From positions 30,708 to 94,707 of the forward strand of contig SICL01000004.1 in assembly GCA_009691445.1 (NCBI GenBank): a stretch of 64,000 nucleotides of DNA, in the 5' to 3' direction. Below, one piece after another: positions 34,356-56,292 of the stretch. A program made the translations under genes and the position numbers. Positions within the stretch are counted from its first letter, which is position 1; the number at the start of each line of letters is the position of its first letter. This stretch comes from Candidatus Taenariivivens baikalensis. Its GTDB lineage: Bacteria > Omnitrophota > Omnitrophia > Omnitrophales > Aquincolibacteriaceae. A model generated the notes under the pieces. The model saw nothing but the letters and a program-made list of their open reading frames with translations, had not been told where the DNA came from and searched no databases.

Positions 34356-34425
34356 GTCATTGCGAGCGAAGCGAAGCAATTTCAGCGCTAAGATTGCCGC
34401 GCTCGCTCCGCTCCCTCGCAATGAC
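34356..34425. repeat. Family-A 70-bp nested palindromic element (GTCATTGCGAG ... CTCGCAATGAC) inside the atp operon between atpH and atpA
   Basis: 11-bp perfect terminal inverted repeats are read directly from the sequence. A near-identical copy in opposite orientation lies at 54761-54830. Confidence 0.85.
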
Positions 34426-36070: not shown

Positions 36071-36988
36071 ATGTCAGGCAAATTAAGAGAACTCAAAAAC
36101 CGGATCCGCAGCGTTGAGAATACAAAAAAGATCACGCGTGCGATGGAAATGGTAGCGGCCTCCAAGCTGCGCCGCTTTCAGACCCTGATGTCCCAAGCCC
36201 GTCCCTACACACTGGGATTGGAAAGCCTGCTGAAGCGCTTGAACCAGAATCTGCCTTCCAAGAGTCATCCTTTTTTTGAATCTCGGGAAGAAAAAAAAAT
36301 CGGTGTGGTTTTGATGACTTCGGATTCTGGACTCTGCGGTTCGTACAATCTTGATCTGCTGGAACATACGCGGGATTTTCTCCGTGAAAATAAATCAGAA
36401 AAAATATGGATTGGAGTGGGCAAGGCCGGCATTGCTGAACTGCGACGTCTTGGTTGCAAGATTCATAAGGAGCTGATTGAAATTCGGCCAGCGCGGTTCG
36501 ATGAGATTTTGAACGACCTCAAATCGATGCTCGAATCTCTTTTCCTGAGCAGGCAGGTGGACGCGGTTTATGTGATCTACAGTCACTCGTTGACGTCTTC
36601 AAGCTTTGCGGATGTTACCGAGAAACTGTTGCCGCTGGCCCAACCCGCCTCTACGCCCGTCATCGCGAACGAAGAGAAGCAATCTAACGCCGTTATTGCT
36701 CCTCGCAATGACAAAGAGCAAGACGTGGATTATATCTTTGAACCTTCGCCGGCATTTATTTTTGATAAGCTAATTCCGCTTTATTTTGAGTCTAAAGTAA
36801 GACAAGTGTTTCTCGAAGCCATCGTCTCCGAGCAGATTGCCCGTATGACGGCCATGCACGCCGCCACGCAAAACGCCAAAGAGATGATCAGCTCGCTTGT
36901 CTTGGAACGCAACAAAGCGCGCCAGGCTTCGATCACTAAAGAAATTATTGAGATTGTGTCGGGCTCTCAAGCCCTAAAAATAAAGTGA
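36071..36988 (+). CDS. atpG: ATP synthase F1 subunit gamma
   Basis: The gamma-family N- and C-terminal coiled-coil helices are present (MSGKLRELKNRIRSVENTKKITRAMEMVAASKLRR...). Confidence 0.95.
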   Translation: MSGKLRELKNRIRSVENTKKITRAMEMVAASKLRRFQTLMSQARPYTLGLESLLKRLNQNLPSKSHPFFESREEKKIGVVLMTSDSGLCGSYNLDLLEHTRDFLRENKSEKIWIGVGKAGIAELRRLGCKIHKELIEIRPARFDEILNDLKSMLESLFLSRQVDAVYVIYSHSLTSSSFADVTEKLLPLAQPASTPVIANEEKQSNAVIAPRNDKEQDVDYIFEPSPAFIFDKLIPLYFESKVRQVFLEAIVSEQIARMTAMHAATQNAKEMISSLVLERNKARQASITKEIIEIVSGSQALKIK

Positions 36989-50332: not shown

Positions 50333-51730
50333 ATGAAAAACTTAATGCGCTTAAAACCAACCGCACCAGGTTTTCTTCTTTTAGTCCTTTCTCTTTTCGG
50401 GCCATCTTCCACCGCCTTTGCCGTTGGTTCGGGCGGTTTTGAAAATGCGACCTTCAGTTCAATTGCTATCTCTCAGAGTAATGCCGTCACCGCTCAAGGC
50501 GAAGAACCGGCGGCTATTTCCTATAACCCGGCAGGAATTGCTAATCTAAAAGGCCTGCAAGTGGAATCCAATATGGGTTTTATCAGCGTAATCACCCATA
50601 TCAGTAAGCAGAGCCAGGACGGAAAAACTCAGAGCTCCGGGACACTCGTGGAAGTTCCCACGGGCTATCTGACTTTCAATCCCGGAAAAGTCTTTAATGA
50701 CCGGCTGGTGCTAGGAATCGGGTCCGATTCGCCCTTTGGCCTCTCCAACAAGTGGGATTCAGCCAATCAAGCAGTCCGGTACACGGGCTACAAGAACTGG
50801 CTCAAAATGTATACCCTGAAACCCACGGTTGCCTTCAAATTCACGGATTGGTTGTCGGTTGGTGCCGGGGCCATGAATTACCGCGTTTTTAATTTTGGAT
50901 CAGTCCAAGCCTACCCTAACAATGCTATTGTTCCGGGATCTCCGGACGGCCAGCTTCGACTCAATATGAGCGGCTCTCATTGGGGTTGGCATTTCGGAGC
51001 GCGTGTGAAACCAGCTCCAAAGCATCAGTTTGGATTTTATTTCCGGAGTCCTGTTAAAATTCACATCCGAGGAAAAGTAAAGGTGGAACGCTCTTCCTTT
51101 GCGCCGGGAGGACGTTTTGAAAGCGGTGCTTATTCCAATCTTGATCTTCCGATGAATATGACCTGGGGCTATGCTTTCATGCCTAATCCCAAGAACACTA
51201 TTGAAGCAGATTTTGGCTACACACGCTGGTCTCAGCATAATCGTCTGGATGTGATTTCTACCGACAGCATCAGCACCTTCGATGACATGATTTTAGCCGC
51301 CATCAGTCTCAATGCCCATGATTATGACGACACCTTCTCGATTCATCTCGGAGGAAATCACAAGGTCAATGACCGCCTGACCTTGCGCGCGGGAACATTA
51401 TTTTATACGGCCGCGGTGCCCAAAAACCATCTTATCCCTGCGGTGCCGGACAGTAACAGGCTGGCTTTTTCTGCAGGTCTCAGCTACCAGATCAATCAAA
51501 TGATGGCCCTGGATGTTTGCTATATGAACATGATTGGCCTGCGCAGAGGCGTGAATAATGATATCGGCGAATCCCTCGGCGGATCTGGGGATGGAAAATA
51601 TACTTCTGATTATAATATTTTCCTGATCTCAATGAGGTTGATGTGGGAAGATCTGTTTGACAAGATGCTGCCTGGAAGTAAACCCTCAGAACCTGCTCAA
51701 AAGTTGGAAGTTTCCCCGGAAATAAAATAA
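50333..51730 (+). CDS. outer-membrane long-chain fatty acid/hydrophobic compound transporter, FadL/OmpP1/TodX family
   Basis: A signal peptide and the family-typical ISYNPAG motif near the N-terminus of a roughly 440-aa beta-barrel are present. Confidence 0.75.
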   Translation: MKNLMRLKPTAPGFLLLVLSLFGPSSTAFAVGSGGFENATFSSIAISQSNAVTAQGEEPAAISYNPAGIANLKGLQVESNMGFISVITHISKQSQDGKTQSSGTLVEVPTGYLTFNPGKVFNDRLVLGIGSDSPFGLSNKWDSANQAVRYTGYKNWLKMYTLKPTVAFKFTDWLSVGAGAMNYRVFNFGSVQAYPNNAIVPGSPDGQLRLNMSGSHWGWHFGARVKPAPKHQFGFYFRSPVKIHIRGKVKVERSSFAPGGRFESGAYSNLDLPMNMTWGYAFMPNPKNTIEADFGYTRWSQHNRLDVISTDSISTFDDMILAAISLNAHDYDDTFSIHLGGNHKVNDRLTLRAGTLFYTAAVPKNHLIPAVPDSNRLAFSAGLSYQINQMMALDVCYMNMIGLRRGVNNDIGESLGGSGDGKYTSDYNIFLISMRLMWEDLFDKMLPGSKPSEPAQKLEVSPEIK

Positions 51731-52236
51731 CGAAGCGTCGACTGCAGTTTTAGAATCGCCTCATCCTTCAAGCGGCTGATCGGATTTCCGTAATAACGTT
51801 TGATCGTCTTTTCAATATCTTCATCCGTGGCAAGAACGATTTCAATATCCCGAATGCCGGGCACGCACTCGAGATCTTTAAGAGAAGCGAGATTCATGGG
51901 ATCAGGGATAGCCACAAGCATCATCCCTTCCTGGATCGTAATCGGGATTAAACCATGTTCGACAGCGAACTGTTTTGAAACCGCTTGCAGGGCCTTGGCC
52001 TGAATCTTGATTTGAGATAAATCCACAAACTGTTTTCCAAACTGAATTGCCAGGGCCTGATATAAAATATTTTTCGAAATGACTCCGTTATCAATCAGTA
52101 TCTTTCCAAGAGGGCGCTTCTTCTCATCGTATTTCTGGAAATTTAACGCGTCTTCAAGATCCTGCCCCTGAACCCACCCCTGATGAAGCAAAATTTCTCC
52201 GATTCGTATGGGCTTCCGTTGTGTGGATATGATCAT
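51697..52236 (-). CDS. stand-alone MshEN-like domain protein (tandem c-di-GMP-binding motifs plus T2SSE_N fold), with no ATPase domain
   Basis: Two 24-aa copies of the RLGxxLLxxG(L/V/I)(L/V/I)xxxxLxxxLxxQ motif are present (RIGEILLHQGWVQGQDLEDALNFQ and PLGKILIDNGVISKNILYQALAIQ). They are followed by a GspE/PilB N-terminal-domain-like segment (LIPITIQEGMMLVAIPDPMN...IEIVLATDEDIEKTIKRYYG). Confidence 0.7.
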   Translation of the reverse strand: MIISTQRKPIRIGEILLHQGWVQGQDLEDALNFQKYDEKKRPLGKILIDNGVISKNILYQALAIQFGKQFVDLSQIKIQAKALQAVSKQFAVEHGLIPITIQEGMMLVAIPDPMNLASLKDLECVPGIRDIEIVLATDEDIEKTIKRYYGNPISRLKDEAILKLQSTLRYFISGETSNF

Positions 52237-52348: not shown

Positions 52349-52532
52349 GTCATTGCGAGCTACAGCGAAGCAATCTCGGGTTGTGCGCTTGAGATTGCCG
52401 CGTCGTCCTGCGGGACTCCTCGCAATGACTAAAATCTTTTCGTTGTCATTGCGAGCTGCAGCGAAGCAATCTTGCTGGTTGTGCCCAAGGATTATTGCCG
52501 CGTCTCCGCCCAAGCGCGGGACTCGCAATGAC
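52349..52532. repeat. Two tandem family-A elements of 81 and 88 bp, each bounded by GTCATTGCGAG...CTCGCAATGAC, separated by a 15-bp linker
   Basis: Read directly from the sequence. Both units contain an inner GCAATC...GATTGC palindrome. The internal sequence differs between units. Confidence 0.85.
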
Positions 52533-52584: not shown

Positions 52585-53055
52585 TTATCCTCGAATGAAG
52601 TCTTGCCTGGAAGAATCCCATATAAAAAGCGCTGAGTCGAAAGCCTTCCCCGCCTGAATGGAAAAAATTAAATAGGCGGCATTGGGATAAACAGGGTTTC
52701 CCTCCCATAGAGCCTGGCGGCGATCTTCTTCGGAAAAGGCTGCTGGGGCATCAATATGAGAATGATAAATGAGACAAATAATCAGGCTGTCGCGACGAAG
52801 TCTTTGATGAACTAATAGAAGTTCGCGAGGATCGATTAAATAAGCAGCGCGGGAAGTGCGAGGATATGTCTGAGGATCCTTGCGATGAAGTTCATCCTGC
52901 ACATTTCTACAGGGAATGATTTCTAGCAGTGTATCGGGATTCTTATTCGTCGCCAGACCTAAGCCACAGCATTCCTGGGGATATTCTTGTTCGGCGTGCT
53001 GCTGAATGCGAAAGAGTAAATTCTGCGGAATGGTGAGGGGCATATGATTCCACAC
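52585..53055 (-). CDS. JAMM/MPN+ (Mov34) family metalloprotease
   Basis: The JAMM motif is intact: the ECCG glutamate, then HSHIDAPAAFSEED (H-x-H-x7-S-x2-D). The ORF is 156 aa. Confidence 0.75.
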   Translation of the reverse strand: MWNHMPLTIPQNLLFRIQQHAEQEYPQECCGLGLATNKNPDTLLEIIPCRNVQDELHRKDPQTYPRTSRAAYLIDPRELLLVHQRLRRDSLIICLIYHSHIDAPAAFSEEDRRQALWEGNPVYPNAAYLIFSIQAGKAFDSALFIWDSSRQDFIRG

Positions 53056-53060
53056 ATTTT

Positions 53061-53136
53061 GTCATCCCCGAAATTTCTTGTCGAGGAGAGGATCCAAAAG
53101 GCTTCTGGATTCCCGCCTAAAGCATGCGGGAATGAC
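53061..53136. repeat. Family-A element GTCATCCCCG...GCGGGAATGAC
   Basis: Terminal inverted repeats lie between the JAMM gene start and the upstream gene stop. Confidence 0.6.
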
Positions 53137-53146
53137 AAACACCTAA

Positions 53147-54739
53147 TTAATCCTGGTGGATAATTCCGGCAATTCGGCCAGACCTGATTTGAACGCGTAC
53201 ATGGGCAGACTGTGCTTTGGATCCCGAACGCACAGTATGAATCACCGCATCAAACACCTCTGCGCTGGATCCTAAATCAATCGTCGGCGAGTGAACATCC
53301 GCTGAACTGAGGTTTTTACCTTGGGCATTAACGAGATCCACATGATACGTCGTTTGCTCTGTGGTCCAAAACTTGTGATCTATCGCCAGATCTTTAAAGC
53401 TAAGCAATTGGTTTTGTAATGAAAAATCTTCCAGGGGAGAGGATGTTTCAAACCCGTATTTCCCAATCAGATCCCGGCGCTCAATAAGCACCTTGGCAAC
53501 GGTTTCGCTGTCCTCGGGCTTGGAAAGTTTTCCGGTTTTCACAATCGCACGAATATTCTCATCCGAAAAGGACATGATAATCTTGGTTGCCCAAAGCGCA
53601 TCCGCACGGGTTAAGTCCTTAAACGCGTAATGCGGCAGCTGGGTTTTGTATTTCGCGGGATCAAAATAACGGTTGTCAAAATAACCGACTGCCGGAGAAA
53701 CACTCATCAGATTTTCTCCCGTATCTTTCCAACGTTTTTGCCAGGGCTTTTTCCAAAATCCAAAAGAAAAAATGGCTTTCCCGGTATCACCATAATCCAC
53801 AAAATACTCGTGAGTGGCCATGGGAGGCTTGGCGCCGTTCGAAGAACTGCCTAGTGCATCCTGAAAATCCATCAGGTAATGTTTCAAAACTGGCTTTCCA
53901 TTGTCACTCACCAGAAGATCCTGCGTATTACCTTCCCGCAGGTCATCCTCACCTAACCAAGAACCAAAGACACGCAAAGCCCGAAGCGCCCGTAAGCAAT
54001 CATGATTAATTTTATCTTGAGGATCAGCGCTGCGGCGGCCTTGAAATCGAAAAACCCCTTTGTCTTCTCCTGCCGGTGTTTTTCTCGCGGAAGCCCGGTA
54101 ACGGCCTTCTTCGTCCTGGGGAACAAAAGTAATATATTGTTCAAAACGTTCCTGCGTTAGTTTTTTCTGAAAGCCGGTGTCGTCATAGACAGTCGCAGAG
54201 GGGGCAATGGAGACCTGCTTCAAGGTGAAGGTCGCAATTGTATATTGAGGAACTGAATAGCCAATCGCGTGAAAAAAACGGCTGGCGATGGAATCGGCGG
54301 ATGTCTGAAGCTCCAACGAGTCTTCGGAATCGAATTTCAAAAAATAAGCTCCTCCCTTGGAATCCTTGATAAAAAATCCAGGATGAAGACCGTTGAATTT
54401 GCCTTGAGTGATCGTAAGTCCGTTGCTGAAATCAGGGCCTTCATTTTCCGCAGGACCTTTGGCCAGCTCCTCAGCACTGAGGGGCTTGCGGGCGTGACGA
54501 TTCACAAAGAACGCTGAATCCGGAACTTCATCATAGGCATTAACATCCAGCGAACGGAGTTTTTTCTTGGCAACAAAGCGGTAAAGCCGGTCCAAATGAA
54601 GAAAATTGGTGCCTTCGTAGTAGACGTTCTGATTAAAAAGATCGGCGAAAAAACTGGTCTCTTGTGTTTTGATCTCTTGCGCAAAGGCAGGCGCCGACAG
54701 CGGAAGCGTTGCTGCAATCATGACAATGGCTATTGTCAT
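53147..54739 (-). CDS. secreted hypothetical protein (530 aa with signal peptide)
   Basis: The ATG at 54739 gives MTIAIVMIAATLPLSAPAFAQE, a classical signal peptide. I do not recognise the family. The track's longer N-terminus reads through repeat 54761-54830. Confidence 0.6.
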   Translation of the reverse strand: MTIAIVMIAATLPLSAPAFAQEIKTQETSFFADLFNQNVYYEGTNFLHLDRLYRFVAKKKLRSLDVNAYDEVPDSAFFVNRHARKPLSAEELAKGPAENEGPDFSNGLTITQGKFNGLHPGFFIKDSKGGAYFLKFDSEDSLELQTSADSIASRFFHAIGYSVPQYTIATFTLKQVSIAPSATVYDDTGFQKKLTQERFEQYITFVPQDEEGRYRASARKTPAGEDKGVFRFQGRRSADPQDKINHDCLRALRALRVFGSWLGEDDLREGNTQDLLVSDNGKPVLKHYLMDFQDALGSSSNGAKPPMATHEYFVDYGDTGKAIFSFGFWKKPWQKRWKDTGENLMSVSPAVGYFDNRYFDPAKYKTQLPHYAFKDLTRADALWATKIIMSFSDENIRAIVKTGKLSKPEDSETVAKVLIERRDLIGKYGFETSSPLEDFSLQNQLLSFKDLAIDHKFWTTEQTTYHVDLVNAQGKNLSSADVHSPTIDLGSSAEVFDAVIHTVRSGSKAQSAHVRVQIRSGRIAGIIHQD

Positions 54740-54760
54740 CCTAAGGCCTCTTTGCCTTAC

Positions 54761-54830
54761 GTCATTGCGAGGGAGCGGAGCGACCGCGGCAATCTCAGCG
54801 CTGAGATTGCTTCGCTTCGCTCGCAATGAC
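54761..54830. repeat. Family-A 70-bp element, a near-identical reverse-orientation copy of 34356-34425
   Basis: GTCATTGCGAGGGAGCGGAGCGAcCGCGGCAATCTcAGCGCTGAgATTGCTTCGCTTCGCTCGCAATGAC aligns to the reverse complement of the atpH-atpA copy with about 4 mismatches. Confidence 0.85.
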
Positions 54831-54833
54831 GAC

Positions 54834-56162
54834 TTAAAAGGGTGTGCTGGTTTTAACATAATAATTGGTTCCTTCATCTCCATGGGCCATTTCCAACGAC
54901 AGCAACACAACGTTTGCCAAACTCGTGCGAATCCCAACTCCATACGATTCACGCAAATTCTTTGATTTCAACTTGTCAAAATTTTTGAAGACCTGCCCTG
55001 AATCCAGAAATACCACGGCGTCCGTCTTCCAATCTCTGTATTCCCAAAGATTGTACCGATACTCTACATTGAAAACGACCATGCTGCGGTCTGTAAACCG
55101 GTTGTAGCGATAGGCCCGAAGGGTTTCGCTCATCTGGTCCGACATCCCGTAACCTCCAAGCCGCGCCATTTGATGAAAGGGCACAGAGTGTCCGTTTGTT
55201 TCAGAGTTATGTTCGCCGTAAGCACGAATCCCAAGTACGCGGCGCGGAGTGCCCAGCTTAAAATAATGACTGAGTTCCATTTCGTATTTGAAAAACTCGG
55301 CATTGGAACTGTAAAGACCCTGGTTATAGCTGAAGCCAAACTTTTGAAGACCGCCGGTTGTGGAATTTCCAGCCTGATCACGGGTATCACGCTTCGCCTC
55401 AGTTTTATAAACTAAAAGTTCATCCCCGTGAAGCCCGGGAATGCCGGCGCTGCCATTGAAAATACCACTGTTATAACGGCCCATCGATCCATCACGACCA
55501 TCCGCGATGTGTACATTGCGGTAGCCAAATTTAAAATCCAGGGAATGCGCCACGTCCGGCTTGTACCCAAGAAGATATTGAAGATTGGTTTCTTCCCGTT
55601 TGTACACATAACCATCTCCCCGGCTGGAATGGGGACCGATGCCATAGAAATGTTCCTGGGGATGGGTTTCATATTGAAAATACCCCTGAGTCCGGAATCC
55701 GGTTCCGCCGATGCGCTCTACGCCAAGACGCGATCCAACGTTAAAATTATAATGGGACGCAAAATGGATCCAGCTATCCGCCACCAAATCCGGAAAACGT
55801 TCCTTCTGATGAAGGGCCCTGACAAAATCAACTTCAGCGCCTATATCCAGACGCGCCAAGCTAATCAAATTGAGTTTTGGTGTCAGACCTTTTTTGCCTA
55901 GCGTGTCATACACCCACTGGATCTTTTCCATCACGTGGTGTTTTTCCATATAGACCAAGCTCTTATCCACGGGGTAACGCAGGATTTCAAAGGGATATTC
56001 CGGAAAATGCAGCAGACTTCGTTCAAACAGAGTGGCCTGTTTAGGTTCGCTCTGAAGCGGAGCATATTTATCGTAAGAACTATCCTGGGCAAACAACGGG
56101 GGCGAAGCAAGAAGCAACACGGCTGTAAAACGGATGATGGATAAGAATGATTTTTGTTTCAT
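54834..56162 (-). CDS. Omp85 (BamA/TamA/TpsB superfamily) outer-membrane beta-barrel protein, short form
   Basis: The ATG at 56162 gives the signal peptide MKQKSFLSIIRFTAVLLLASPPLFAQD. The C-terminal barrel has alternating aromatic/hydrophobic strands, a Gly-rich motif, and a terminal ...YVKTSTPF ending in Phe, as in the bacterial surface antigen D15 domain. Confidence 0.65.
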   Translation of the reverse strand: MKQKSFLSIIRFTAVLLLASPPLFAQDSSYDKYAPLQSEPKQATLFERSLLHFPEYPFEILRYPVDKSLVYMEKHHVMEKIQWVYDTLGKKGLTPKLNLISLARLDIGAEVDFVRALHQKERFPDLVADSWIHFASHYNFNVGSRLGVERIGGTGFRTQGYFQYETHPQEHFYGIGPHSSRGDGYVYKREETNLQYLLGYKPDVAHSLDFKFGYRNVHIADGRDGSMGRYNSGIFNGSAGIPGLHGDELLVYKTEAKRDTRDQAGNSTTGGLQKFGFSYNQGLYSSNAEFFKYEMELSHYFKLGTPRRVLGIRAYGEHNSETNGHSVPFHQMARLGGYGMSDQMSETLRAYRYNRFTDRSMVVFNVEYRYNLWEYRDWKTDAVVFLDSGQVFKNFDKLKSKNLRESYGVGIRTSLANVVLLSLEMAHGDEGTNYYVKTSTPF

Positions 56163-56292
56163 AGGGTAATAAAGTGTTTCTCGAAAAATATTTATCGGCT
56201 CCCGAGGATTTTCCTTAAGATTTATTTTTGATTCTTCAACTGCCGGACGCAGAAACAACTGGTGGGGCCAGGGCCAGCCGGACTTGGCCTCT

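Follow-up and report, generated by a model that had tools for sequence, protein, structure and literature searches.

A stand-alone JAMM protease of an Omnitrophota genome as a probable Mec+-type hydrolase of a sulfur carrier encoded elsewhere

What does a JAMM/MPN+ metalloprotease act on when neither a Ubl protein nor an E1-like enzyme is encoded beside it? The question is raised by a small gene in a 64,000-nt stretch of a Candidatus Taenariivivens baikalensis contig (the window), the product of which had been described, from the sequence alone, as an orphan with partners encoded elsewhere or with a different substrate. In M. tuberculosis, the E1-like MoeZ thiocarboxylates the carrier CysO, CysM joins CysO to the aminoacrylate derived from O-phosphoserine to give CysO-Cys, and the JAMM protein Mec+ hydrolyzes CysO-Cys to free cysteine and regenerated carrier; moeZR is unlinked to mec-cysO-cysM (PMC3227635). 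We compared the window gene, its product, and its neighborhood with those of its relatives and of systems of this kind.

The gene and its product

The JAMM gene (Prok-JAB, MEROPS M67) is located at 52585..53043 on the minus strand and encodes 152 aa. In the list of open reading frames it begins at a GTG (52585..53055, minus strand, 156 aa); the ATG at 53043 is the likelier start, with the GTG at 53055 as the alternative. The 152-aa product is 100% identical to NCBI MSR77076.1, which comes from a MAG of Candidatus Omnitrophota and is annotated as "M67 family peptidase," and it matches Pfam PF14464 (Prok-JAB; E = 4.3e-15) with 56 bits, above the gathering cut-off of 25, which places it in that family. 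Pfam supported nothing beyond Prok-JAB, and readings of the protein as a RadC or phage-tail JAB protein were set aside. No NCBIfam equivalog cut-off was reached, and NCBIfam holds no curated Mec+ model. Several homologs have been named "[CysO sulfur-carrier protein]-S-L-cysteine hydrolase" by JGI (KO-derived names), which lends support to a Mec+-type assignment.

In-frame stops were found seven codons 5′ of the ATG, and database homologs are 148–190 aa long, so the protein is whole and not a portion of a longer one. The concern that it might be a piece of a Mov34 fusion is thus ruled out by the upstream stops. A promoter and terminator scan around the gene performed no better than on shuffled sequence.

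Active site, fold, and a subfamily-specific insert

The JAMM motif is complete and canonical (152-aa numbering). The catalytic glutamate is E24, in ...YPQECCG... (codon 52972..52974, minus strand), and the zinc-binding core is H94-S95-H96, followed by seven residues and S104-E-E-D107 (codons 52723..52764, minus strand). All six motif residues were invariant in 17 database homologs and in 60 orthologs from genome contigs. The complete E...HxH...S..D zinc site of the original prediction is therefore present, in a protein of more likely 152 than 156 aa, and its ligands are conserved throughout the orthologs.

The AF2 model, built from a 17-sequence alignment (pLDDT 91.5, pTM 0.86), has the MPN alpha/beta fold. 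When the model was compared with the PDB by Foldseek, the top match was P. furiosus JAMM1 with the Ubl SAMP2 (5LDA/5LD9; TM 0.81–0.83, 21% identity), followed by two uncharacterized bacterial MPN proteins and then by Rpn11 and BRCC36 (probability 1.00 for JAMM1, Rpn11, and BRCC36 alike). The bacterial Ubl-deubiquitinase complex 8TYX was also among the matches. A sequence-profile search of the PDB was consistent with this outcome; the closest solved sequences were DSY2949 (PDB 2KKS, E = 3e-14) and SRU_2040 (PDB 2KCQ, E = 2e-13), which are uncharacterized, stand-alone bacterial Mov34/MPN proteins of similar size. Structure prediction, which had been proposed as a check, thus agreed with the assignment, and from motif and fold together the product is predicted to be an intact zinc-dependent protease.

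Alignments revealed an insert at residues 45–72 (52828..52911, minus strand; C-R-N-V-Q-D-E-L-H...P-R-T-S-R-x-A-Y...P) that is specific to the subfamily and missing from 2kks, 2kcq, and JAMM1. Its residues N47, Q49, H53, R62, A67, Y68, and P72 are 95–100% conserved. The only lower-confidence part of the AF2 model lies within the insert (pLDDT down to 64, residues 61–70). The insert occupies the position of the Ins-1 substrate-tail loop of JAMM deubiquitinases, and it is probably a carrier-tail-binding loop. Of the 32 alignment columns with conservation of 95% or more, insert positions among them, the window protein keeps 30, and the remaining two are V-to-I replacements.

The likeness to Mec+ (Rv1334; [CysO sulfur-carrier protein]-S-L-cysteine hydrolase, EC 3.13.1.6) extends to size, stand-alone architecture, and motif. 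Identity to an approximate Rv1334 sequence is only 28% (E = 6e-8), a value that serves as a lead only. In that approximate sequence, approximately 20 residues of the insert of the window subfamily (RNVQDELH...PRTSRxAY) are missing.

Neighborhood of the gene in the window

The genes that flank the JAMM gene are those originally described. On the 5′ side is a hypothetical protein with a signal peptide (hyp601; a 601-aa ORF at 53147–54952, minus strand), which is paired with an Omp85-family protein (53147–56258 for the pair, minus strand). On the 3′ side is an MshEN-domain protein identified by Pfam (51697–52236, minus strand), and palindromic repeats are present on both sides. The MshEN protein (179 aa), which keeps a conserved place 3′ of the JAMM module (shared with L063 and L008), consists of the c-di-GMP-binding MshEN domain alone, without an ATPase or glycosyltransferase part. 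Two-component genes and genes for FadL and a SufT-like protein are farther away, and housekeeping genes (ribosomal proteins, rpoBC, ATP synthase, NADH dehydrogenase subunits) make up the remainder of the window.

No ThiS/MoaD/CysO, ThiF/MoeZ, or PLP cysteine synthase gene was found in the 64-kb window by tblastn, HMM, or Pfam searches. The four small ORFs in the window that end in GG were all shadow ORFs within or overlapping real genes. Within the 64 kb, the JAMM gene therefore has no Mec+-type linkage to carrier or cysteine synthase genes. The JAMM gene has neither cysO nor cysM adjacent to it, in contrast to mec-cysO-cysM.

Orthologs outside Omnitrophota

The neighborhoods of orthologs were compared across 58 loci, one genome per species. 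The loci were retrieved with the eight closest sequences and with the patterns IYHSH[IM]DA and CRNVQD[ED]xH, so the set is biased toward this JAMM subfamily. In 39 of the 58 loci, the JAMM ortholog was located directly 3′ of a CysO/MoaD-like carrier gene on the same strand. The carrier gene (approximately 90 aa) was 0–40 bp 5′ of the JAMM ortholog or overlapped its start. These loci were mostly from Rokubacteria/Methylomirabilota, with JAMM orthologs 40–51% identical to the window protein. A cysteine synthase gene was located 5′ of the carrier in all 32 carrier-linked loci with enough flank, giving the order cysM-cysO-JAMM, which differs from the mec-cysO-cysM order of M. tuberculosis. The carriers were 33–51% identical to M. 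tuberculosis CysO (approximate query sequence) and scored as SAMP1/MoaD_arch in NCBIfam. The orthologs at these loci are thus linked to both a carrier and a cysteine synthase, as mec is, with the E1 gene unlinked. In a CysO profile search of a 5.8-billion-protein set, the best 120 matches were all Rokubacteria/NC10-like.

The E1 gene was missing from nearly all loci examined, as in M. tuberculosis, and its non-adjacency is therefore normal for the family. A JAMM gene without Ubl or E1 neighbors is not by itself evidence for a new system. The description of the window gene as an orphan was correct in that no Ubl or E1 gene is nearby. It overstated the puzzle, because a carrier (39 loci) or cysM (10 Omnitrophota loci) adjoins the orthologs; comparing neighborhoods across relatives, as had been suggested, was what revealed a cysteine synthase and a CysO/MoaD-type carrier as partners. 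A different arrangement, ThiF-TusA-ThiS-x-JAMM-APS kinase, was found in an Archangium locus.

In 39 of 40 loci, the carrier next to the JAMM ortholog extended 1–37 residues past a conserved PALAGG; such carriers need a cut after the GG before activation. In one locus (L032:2757–3575), carrier and JAMM were encoded in a single frame of 272 aa. The tails and this in-frame arrangement suggest synthesis of the carriers as precursors that the JAMM protein must trim, and the post-GG cut that frees cysteine is probably also needed for carrier maturation. M. tuberculosis CysO ends at GG and differs in this respect from the carriers of the window relatives. The tails often consist of repeated xALAGG units (for example, L026:7627–7989, L034:119–436, and L030:7654–7983, among L016–L060).

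Tails of this kind are shared with QbsD/QbsE-type pairs of the Pseudomonas quinolobactin pathway, in which the JAMM protein QbsD trims the residues past the GG of the carrier QbsE, enabling its activation. A similar pair of JAMM protein and sulfur carrier reportedly occurs in the chuangxinmycin natural-product cluster. QbsD/QbsE-type systems belong to secondary-metabolite clusters with an E1 and include the carrier, whereas the relatives of the window gene stand in a cysteine synthase context and the window itself has no carrier.

The Omnitrophota locus

Within Omnitrophota, the JAMM ortholog was located 6–24 bp 3′ of, or overlapped, a cysM-like cysteine synthase gene in 10 loci (TIGR01138, 359–369 bits). 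None of approximately 20 Omnitrophota orthologs had a recognizable CysO/ThiS/MoaD gene alongside, and no recognizable carrier was found within 8 kb at any Omnitrophota locus, the window included (CysO HMM without filters, best E = 2). In a neighbor-joining tree, the window protein nested among the cysM-linked Omnitrophota orthologs on a branch of uninflated length, and the carrier-linked clade adjoined them. In one Omnitrophota-type MAG, a cysteine synthase (PALP) and the JAMM protein formed a single 459-aa in-frame ORF with no stop between them (L011:7074–8453), which is either a genuine fusion or the result of a stop codon lost in assembly.

The window, L003, L008, L063, and other loci had a common gene order: RNase HII, UPF0102, Omp85, a secreted protein of approximately 550 aa, [HAD], [cysM], JAMM, [Trm112-like methyltransferase], and MshEN (brackets denote genes present in some loci only). 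The window order is this order minus HAD, cysM, and the methyltransferase. The gap between the hyp601 counterpart and JAMM was filled by cysM in L007, L008, L009, L011, L013, L015, L017, L020, and L063, and the gap between JAMM and MshEN was filled by the methyltransferase in L006, L008, L012, L015, L017, and L063. The methyltransferase, which often follows JAMM in Omnitrophota, is a protein of approximately 345 aa that combines a Methyltransf_11 domain and a zinc ribbon of the Trm112p-like type (for example, L063:2175–3218 and L008:8441–9472). Its start overlaps the JAMM stop, and the cysM-JAMM-methyltransferase set therefore looks translationally coupled.

Both window gaps contain palindromic repeat elements in place of these genes. 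Where relatives carry cysM (and HAD), one element (GTCATCCCC...GCGGGAATGAC; 53060..53136, no strand assigned) lies between hyp601 and JAMM, and the GCGGGAATGAC family had six matches in the window vs. 1.3 expected. Where relatives carry the methyltransferase, two tandem elements (GTCATTGCGAGC...CTCGCAATGAC; 52349..52532, no strand assigned) lie between JAMM and MshEN; this family had nine arm matches in the window vs. 0.28 expected and a strong fold (z = −4.1).

In the nearest relatives (approximately 60% identical), the secreted protein is encoded directly 5′ of JAMM and cysM is not adjacent; at least seven Omnitrophota loci were without cysM adjacency. The uncoupling from cysM is therefore old rather than recent, which leaves room for a change in the role of the JAMM protein. 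In L006 (7361–7986), cysM was split into two frames, with its middle missing, beside an intact JAMM gene. The same MAG (JAHFHG01, isolate nzgw333) also contained an intact cysM-JAMM pair (L013:2127–3529). These two copies of the secreted-protein/cysM/JAMM set could reflect duplication with decay or a bin in which two strains are mixed.

Proposed function and alternative explanations

From the motif, the fold, the orthology to operon-linked enzymes, and the synteny, we infer that the window protein is probably a hydrolase of the Mec+ type and that its substrate is a sulfur carrier, encoded outside the window, which it would cleave behind the Gly-Gly. Mec+-like release of cysteine is the best-supported role for the subfamily as judged from operon and fusion evidence. 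The protein would be a cytoplasmic, zinc-dependent JAMM isopeptidase that cuts the peptide bond just past the C-terminal Gly-Gly of a carrier of the CysO/MoaD/ThiS family. In the predicted pathway, protein-thiocarboxylate-dependent cysteine synthesis, an E1-like MoeZ would thiocarboxylate the carrier, CysM would add the carrier to activated serine to form a carrier-cysteine adduct, and the JAMM protein would free cysteine from the adduct and regenerate the carrier. The same cut probably also strips the short post-Gly-Gly tail of the neighboring carriers. In the Omnitrophota lineage of the window, the JAMM gene appears to have stayed in its ancestral slot, with palindromic repeats instead of cysM (5′) and the methyltransferase (3′); because these two genes are gone from the locus, the enzyme would use a carrier and a synthase encoded elsewhere. 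Of the two possibilities raised at the outset, partners encoded elsewhere are favored over a different substrate, because the family-specific conserved residues have been kept.

It seems to us rather unlikely that the whole genome has lost cysM and the carrier, leaving the JAMM protein as an undecayed relic or with a new substrate such as a Ubl-like tail or a small amide. Such a loss would agree with the disappearance of both flanking pathway-associated genes, with repeat elements at the scars, with the visible decay of cysM beside an intact JAMM gene in L006, with the cysM-less arrangement of at least seven Omnitrophota loci, and with the lack of a carrier near any Omnitrophota ortholog. However, the catalytic and subfamily-specific residues are retained, the branch is not inflated, and the approximately 60%-identical relatives without cysM are equally intact, which indicates that purifying selection has long acted on one and the same binding surface. 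A related idea, in which the pathway operates in Omnitrophota without a carrier or with different wiring, is unlikely as well. Under that arrangement, the enzyme might act on an unrecognized substrate instead of CysO-Cys, such as a small-molecule amide, a noncanonical carrier, or some other protein's tail. This idea draws on the translational coupling (and, once, fusion) of cysM to JAMM, often followed by the Trm112-like methyltransferase, and on the persistence of an intact JAMM gene in the window lineage, from whose locus cysM and the methyltransferase have long been gone. We consider it decidedly improbable that the enzyme is a desampylase or resembles a deubiquitinase, removing a Ubl modifier that is attached to lysines in other proteins (SAMP/Ubl-type conjugation) rather than serving cysteine synthesis. 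The archaeal JAMM1 desampylases (P. furiosus; Haloferax HvJAMM1) have the closest solved fold, determined with SAMP2 bound, and the same active site, and they recognize a MoaD-like Ubl by its C-terminal tail; in addition, the carriers next to the orthologs score as SAMP1/MoaD_arch. The role of the JAMM1 desampylases is deconjugation from proteins, not cysteine release, and they are without the insert of the window subfamily. The haloarchaeal desampylase model NF041370 was the only NCBIfam match, yet its score (40.6 bits) was far below the cut-off of 130. The orthologs are found with a cysteine synthase and a carrier, not with E1/E2 or proteasome genes, and the synthase-JAMM fusion points to metabolism.

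The neighbors in the window itself suggest a different partner, namely the Omp85 and secreted protein pair, for which the JAMM protein could, for example, process an envelope-biogenesis factor. To this we assign a very low probability. The order Omp85-hyp601-JAMM is kept in 15–17 Omnitrophota loci, the gap between hyp601 and JAMM is only 15–100 bp in the window, L003, L010, L045, and L056, and there is no terminator-like site in that gap. Yet hyp601 and Omp85 are predicted from their sequences to be exported, and the JAMM protein is without a signal peptide; HAD, cysM, or both separate hyp601 from JAMM in most relatives; and orthologs outside Omnitrophota have a carrier and a synthase instead of Omp85 and hyp601. 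Because RNase HII and UPF0102 upstream are equally syntenic, the synteny of Omp85 and JAMM reflects conserved gene order, not a functional module. The chance that the protein is a Cap3-like JAMM of an anti-phage (CBASS-type) signaling operon, a link entertained in the original prediction, is negligible, and gene context effectively refutes it. All that it shares with such proteins is the generic JAMM fold, with 8TYX among the Foldseek matches, whereas PADLOC gave no match for the JAMM protein or three neighbors, the neighboring genes encode Omp85, the hypothetical, MshEN, and FadL and not a CD-NTase or Cap2, and neither the window nor the 60 related loci contained cyclase, E1/E2, or effector genes.

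The Mec+-type reading replaces the generic label of "M67 family peptidase," under which the protein was already known, with a specific prediction, that of a post-Gly-Gly hydrolase of a CysO-type carrier. The protein is an ordinary representative of a familiar enzyme type, and the practical value of the prediction is small. The comparison may bear on the evolution of sulfur carriers and Ubl proteins in two ways: post-Gly-Gly tails, sometimes made of repeated xALAGG, are near-universal beside this JAMM subfamily, and Omnitrophota retain cysM-JAMM pairs that have no carrier in their vicinity. Should the MAG truly be free of carriers, the retained JAMM gene would need a new explanation.

Repeat elements and other conserved neighbors

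Elements of the GTCATTGCGAGC...GCTCGCAATGAC type (approximately 70–90 bp, palindromic) are scattered through the intergenic gaps of the window, with copies at 34356–34425, 36701–36712, 52349–52429, 52445–52532, and 54761–54830. Within its first 71 codons, the 601-aa ORF reads through a repeat copy, and the true start of hyp601 is therefore probably the ATG at 54739. Sites of the GCGGGAATGAC-arm family were found at 1094, 53126, 58541, and elsewhere.

Omp85 and the secreted protein of approximately 550 aa form a conserved pair in approximately 15 Omnitrophota loci (L003, L005–L008, L010, L011, L013, L015, L017, L020, L022, L045, and L056), often with overlapping ORF ends. The secreted protein had no match in Pfam, NCBIfam, PADLOC, or the PDB (the PDB profile search gave noise), apart from faint Pfam matches to a HipA-like kinase in only 4 of 15 members. 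The AF2 model of the 530-aa protein upstream of JAMM in the window, from a single sequence, had a pLDDT of 31.

In four Omnitrophota loci, a HAD-family phosphatase (PpaX/phosphoglycolate-phosphatase-like) was encoded between the secreted protein and cysM/JAMM (L005:7252–7992, L011:6371–7072, L017:6311–6991, and L022:7307–7999). A tie between this phosphatase and the phosphoserine substrate is conceivable.
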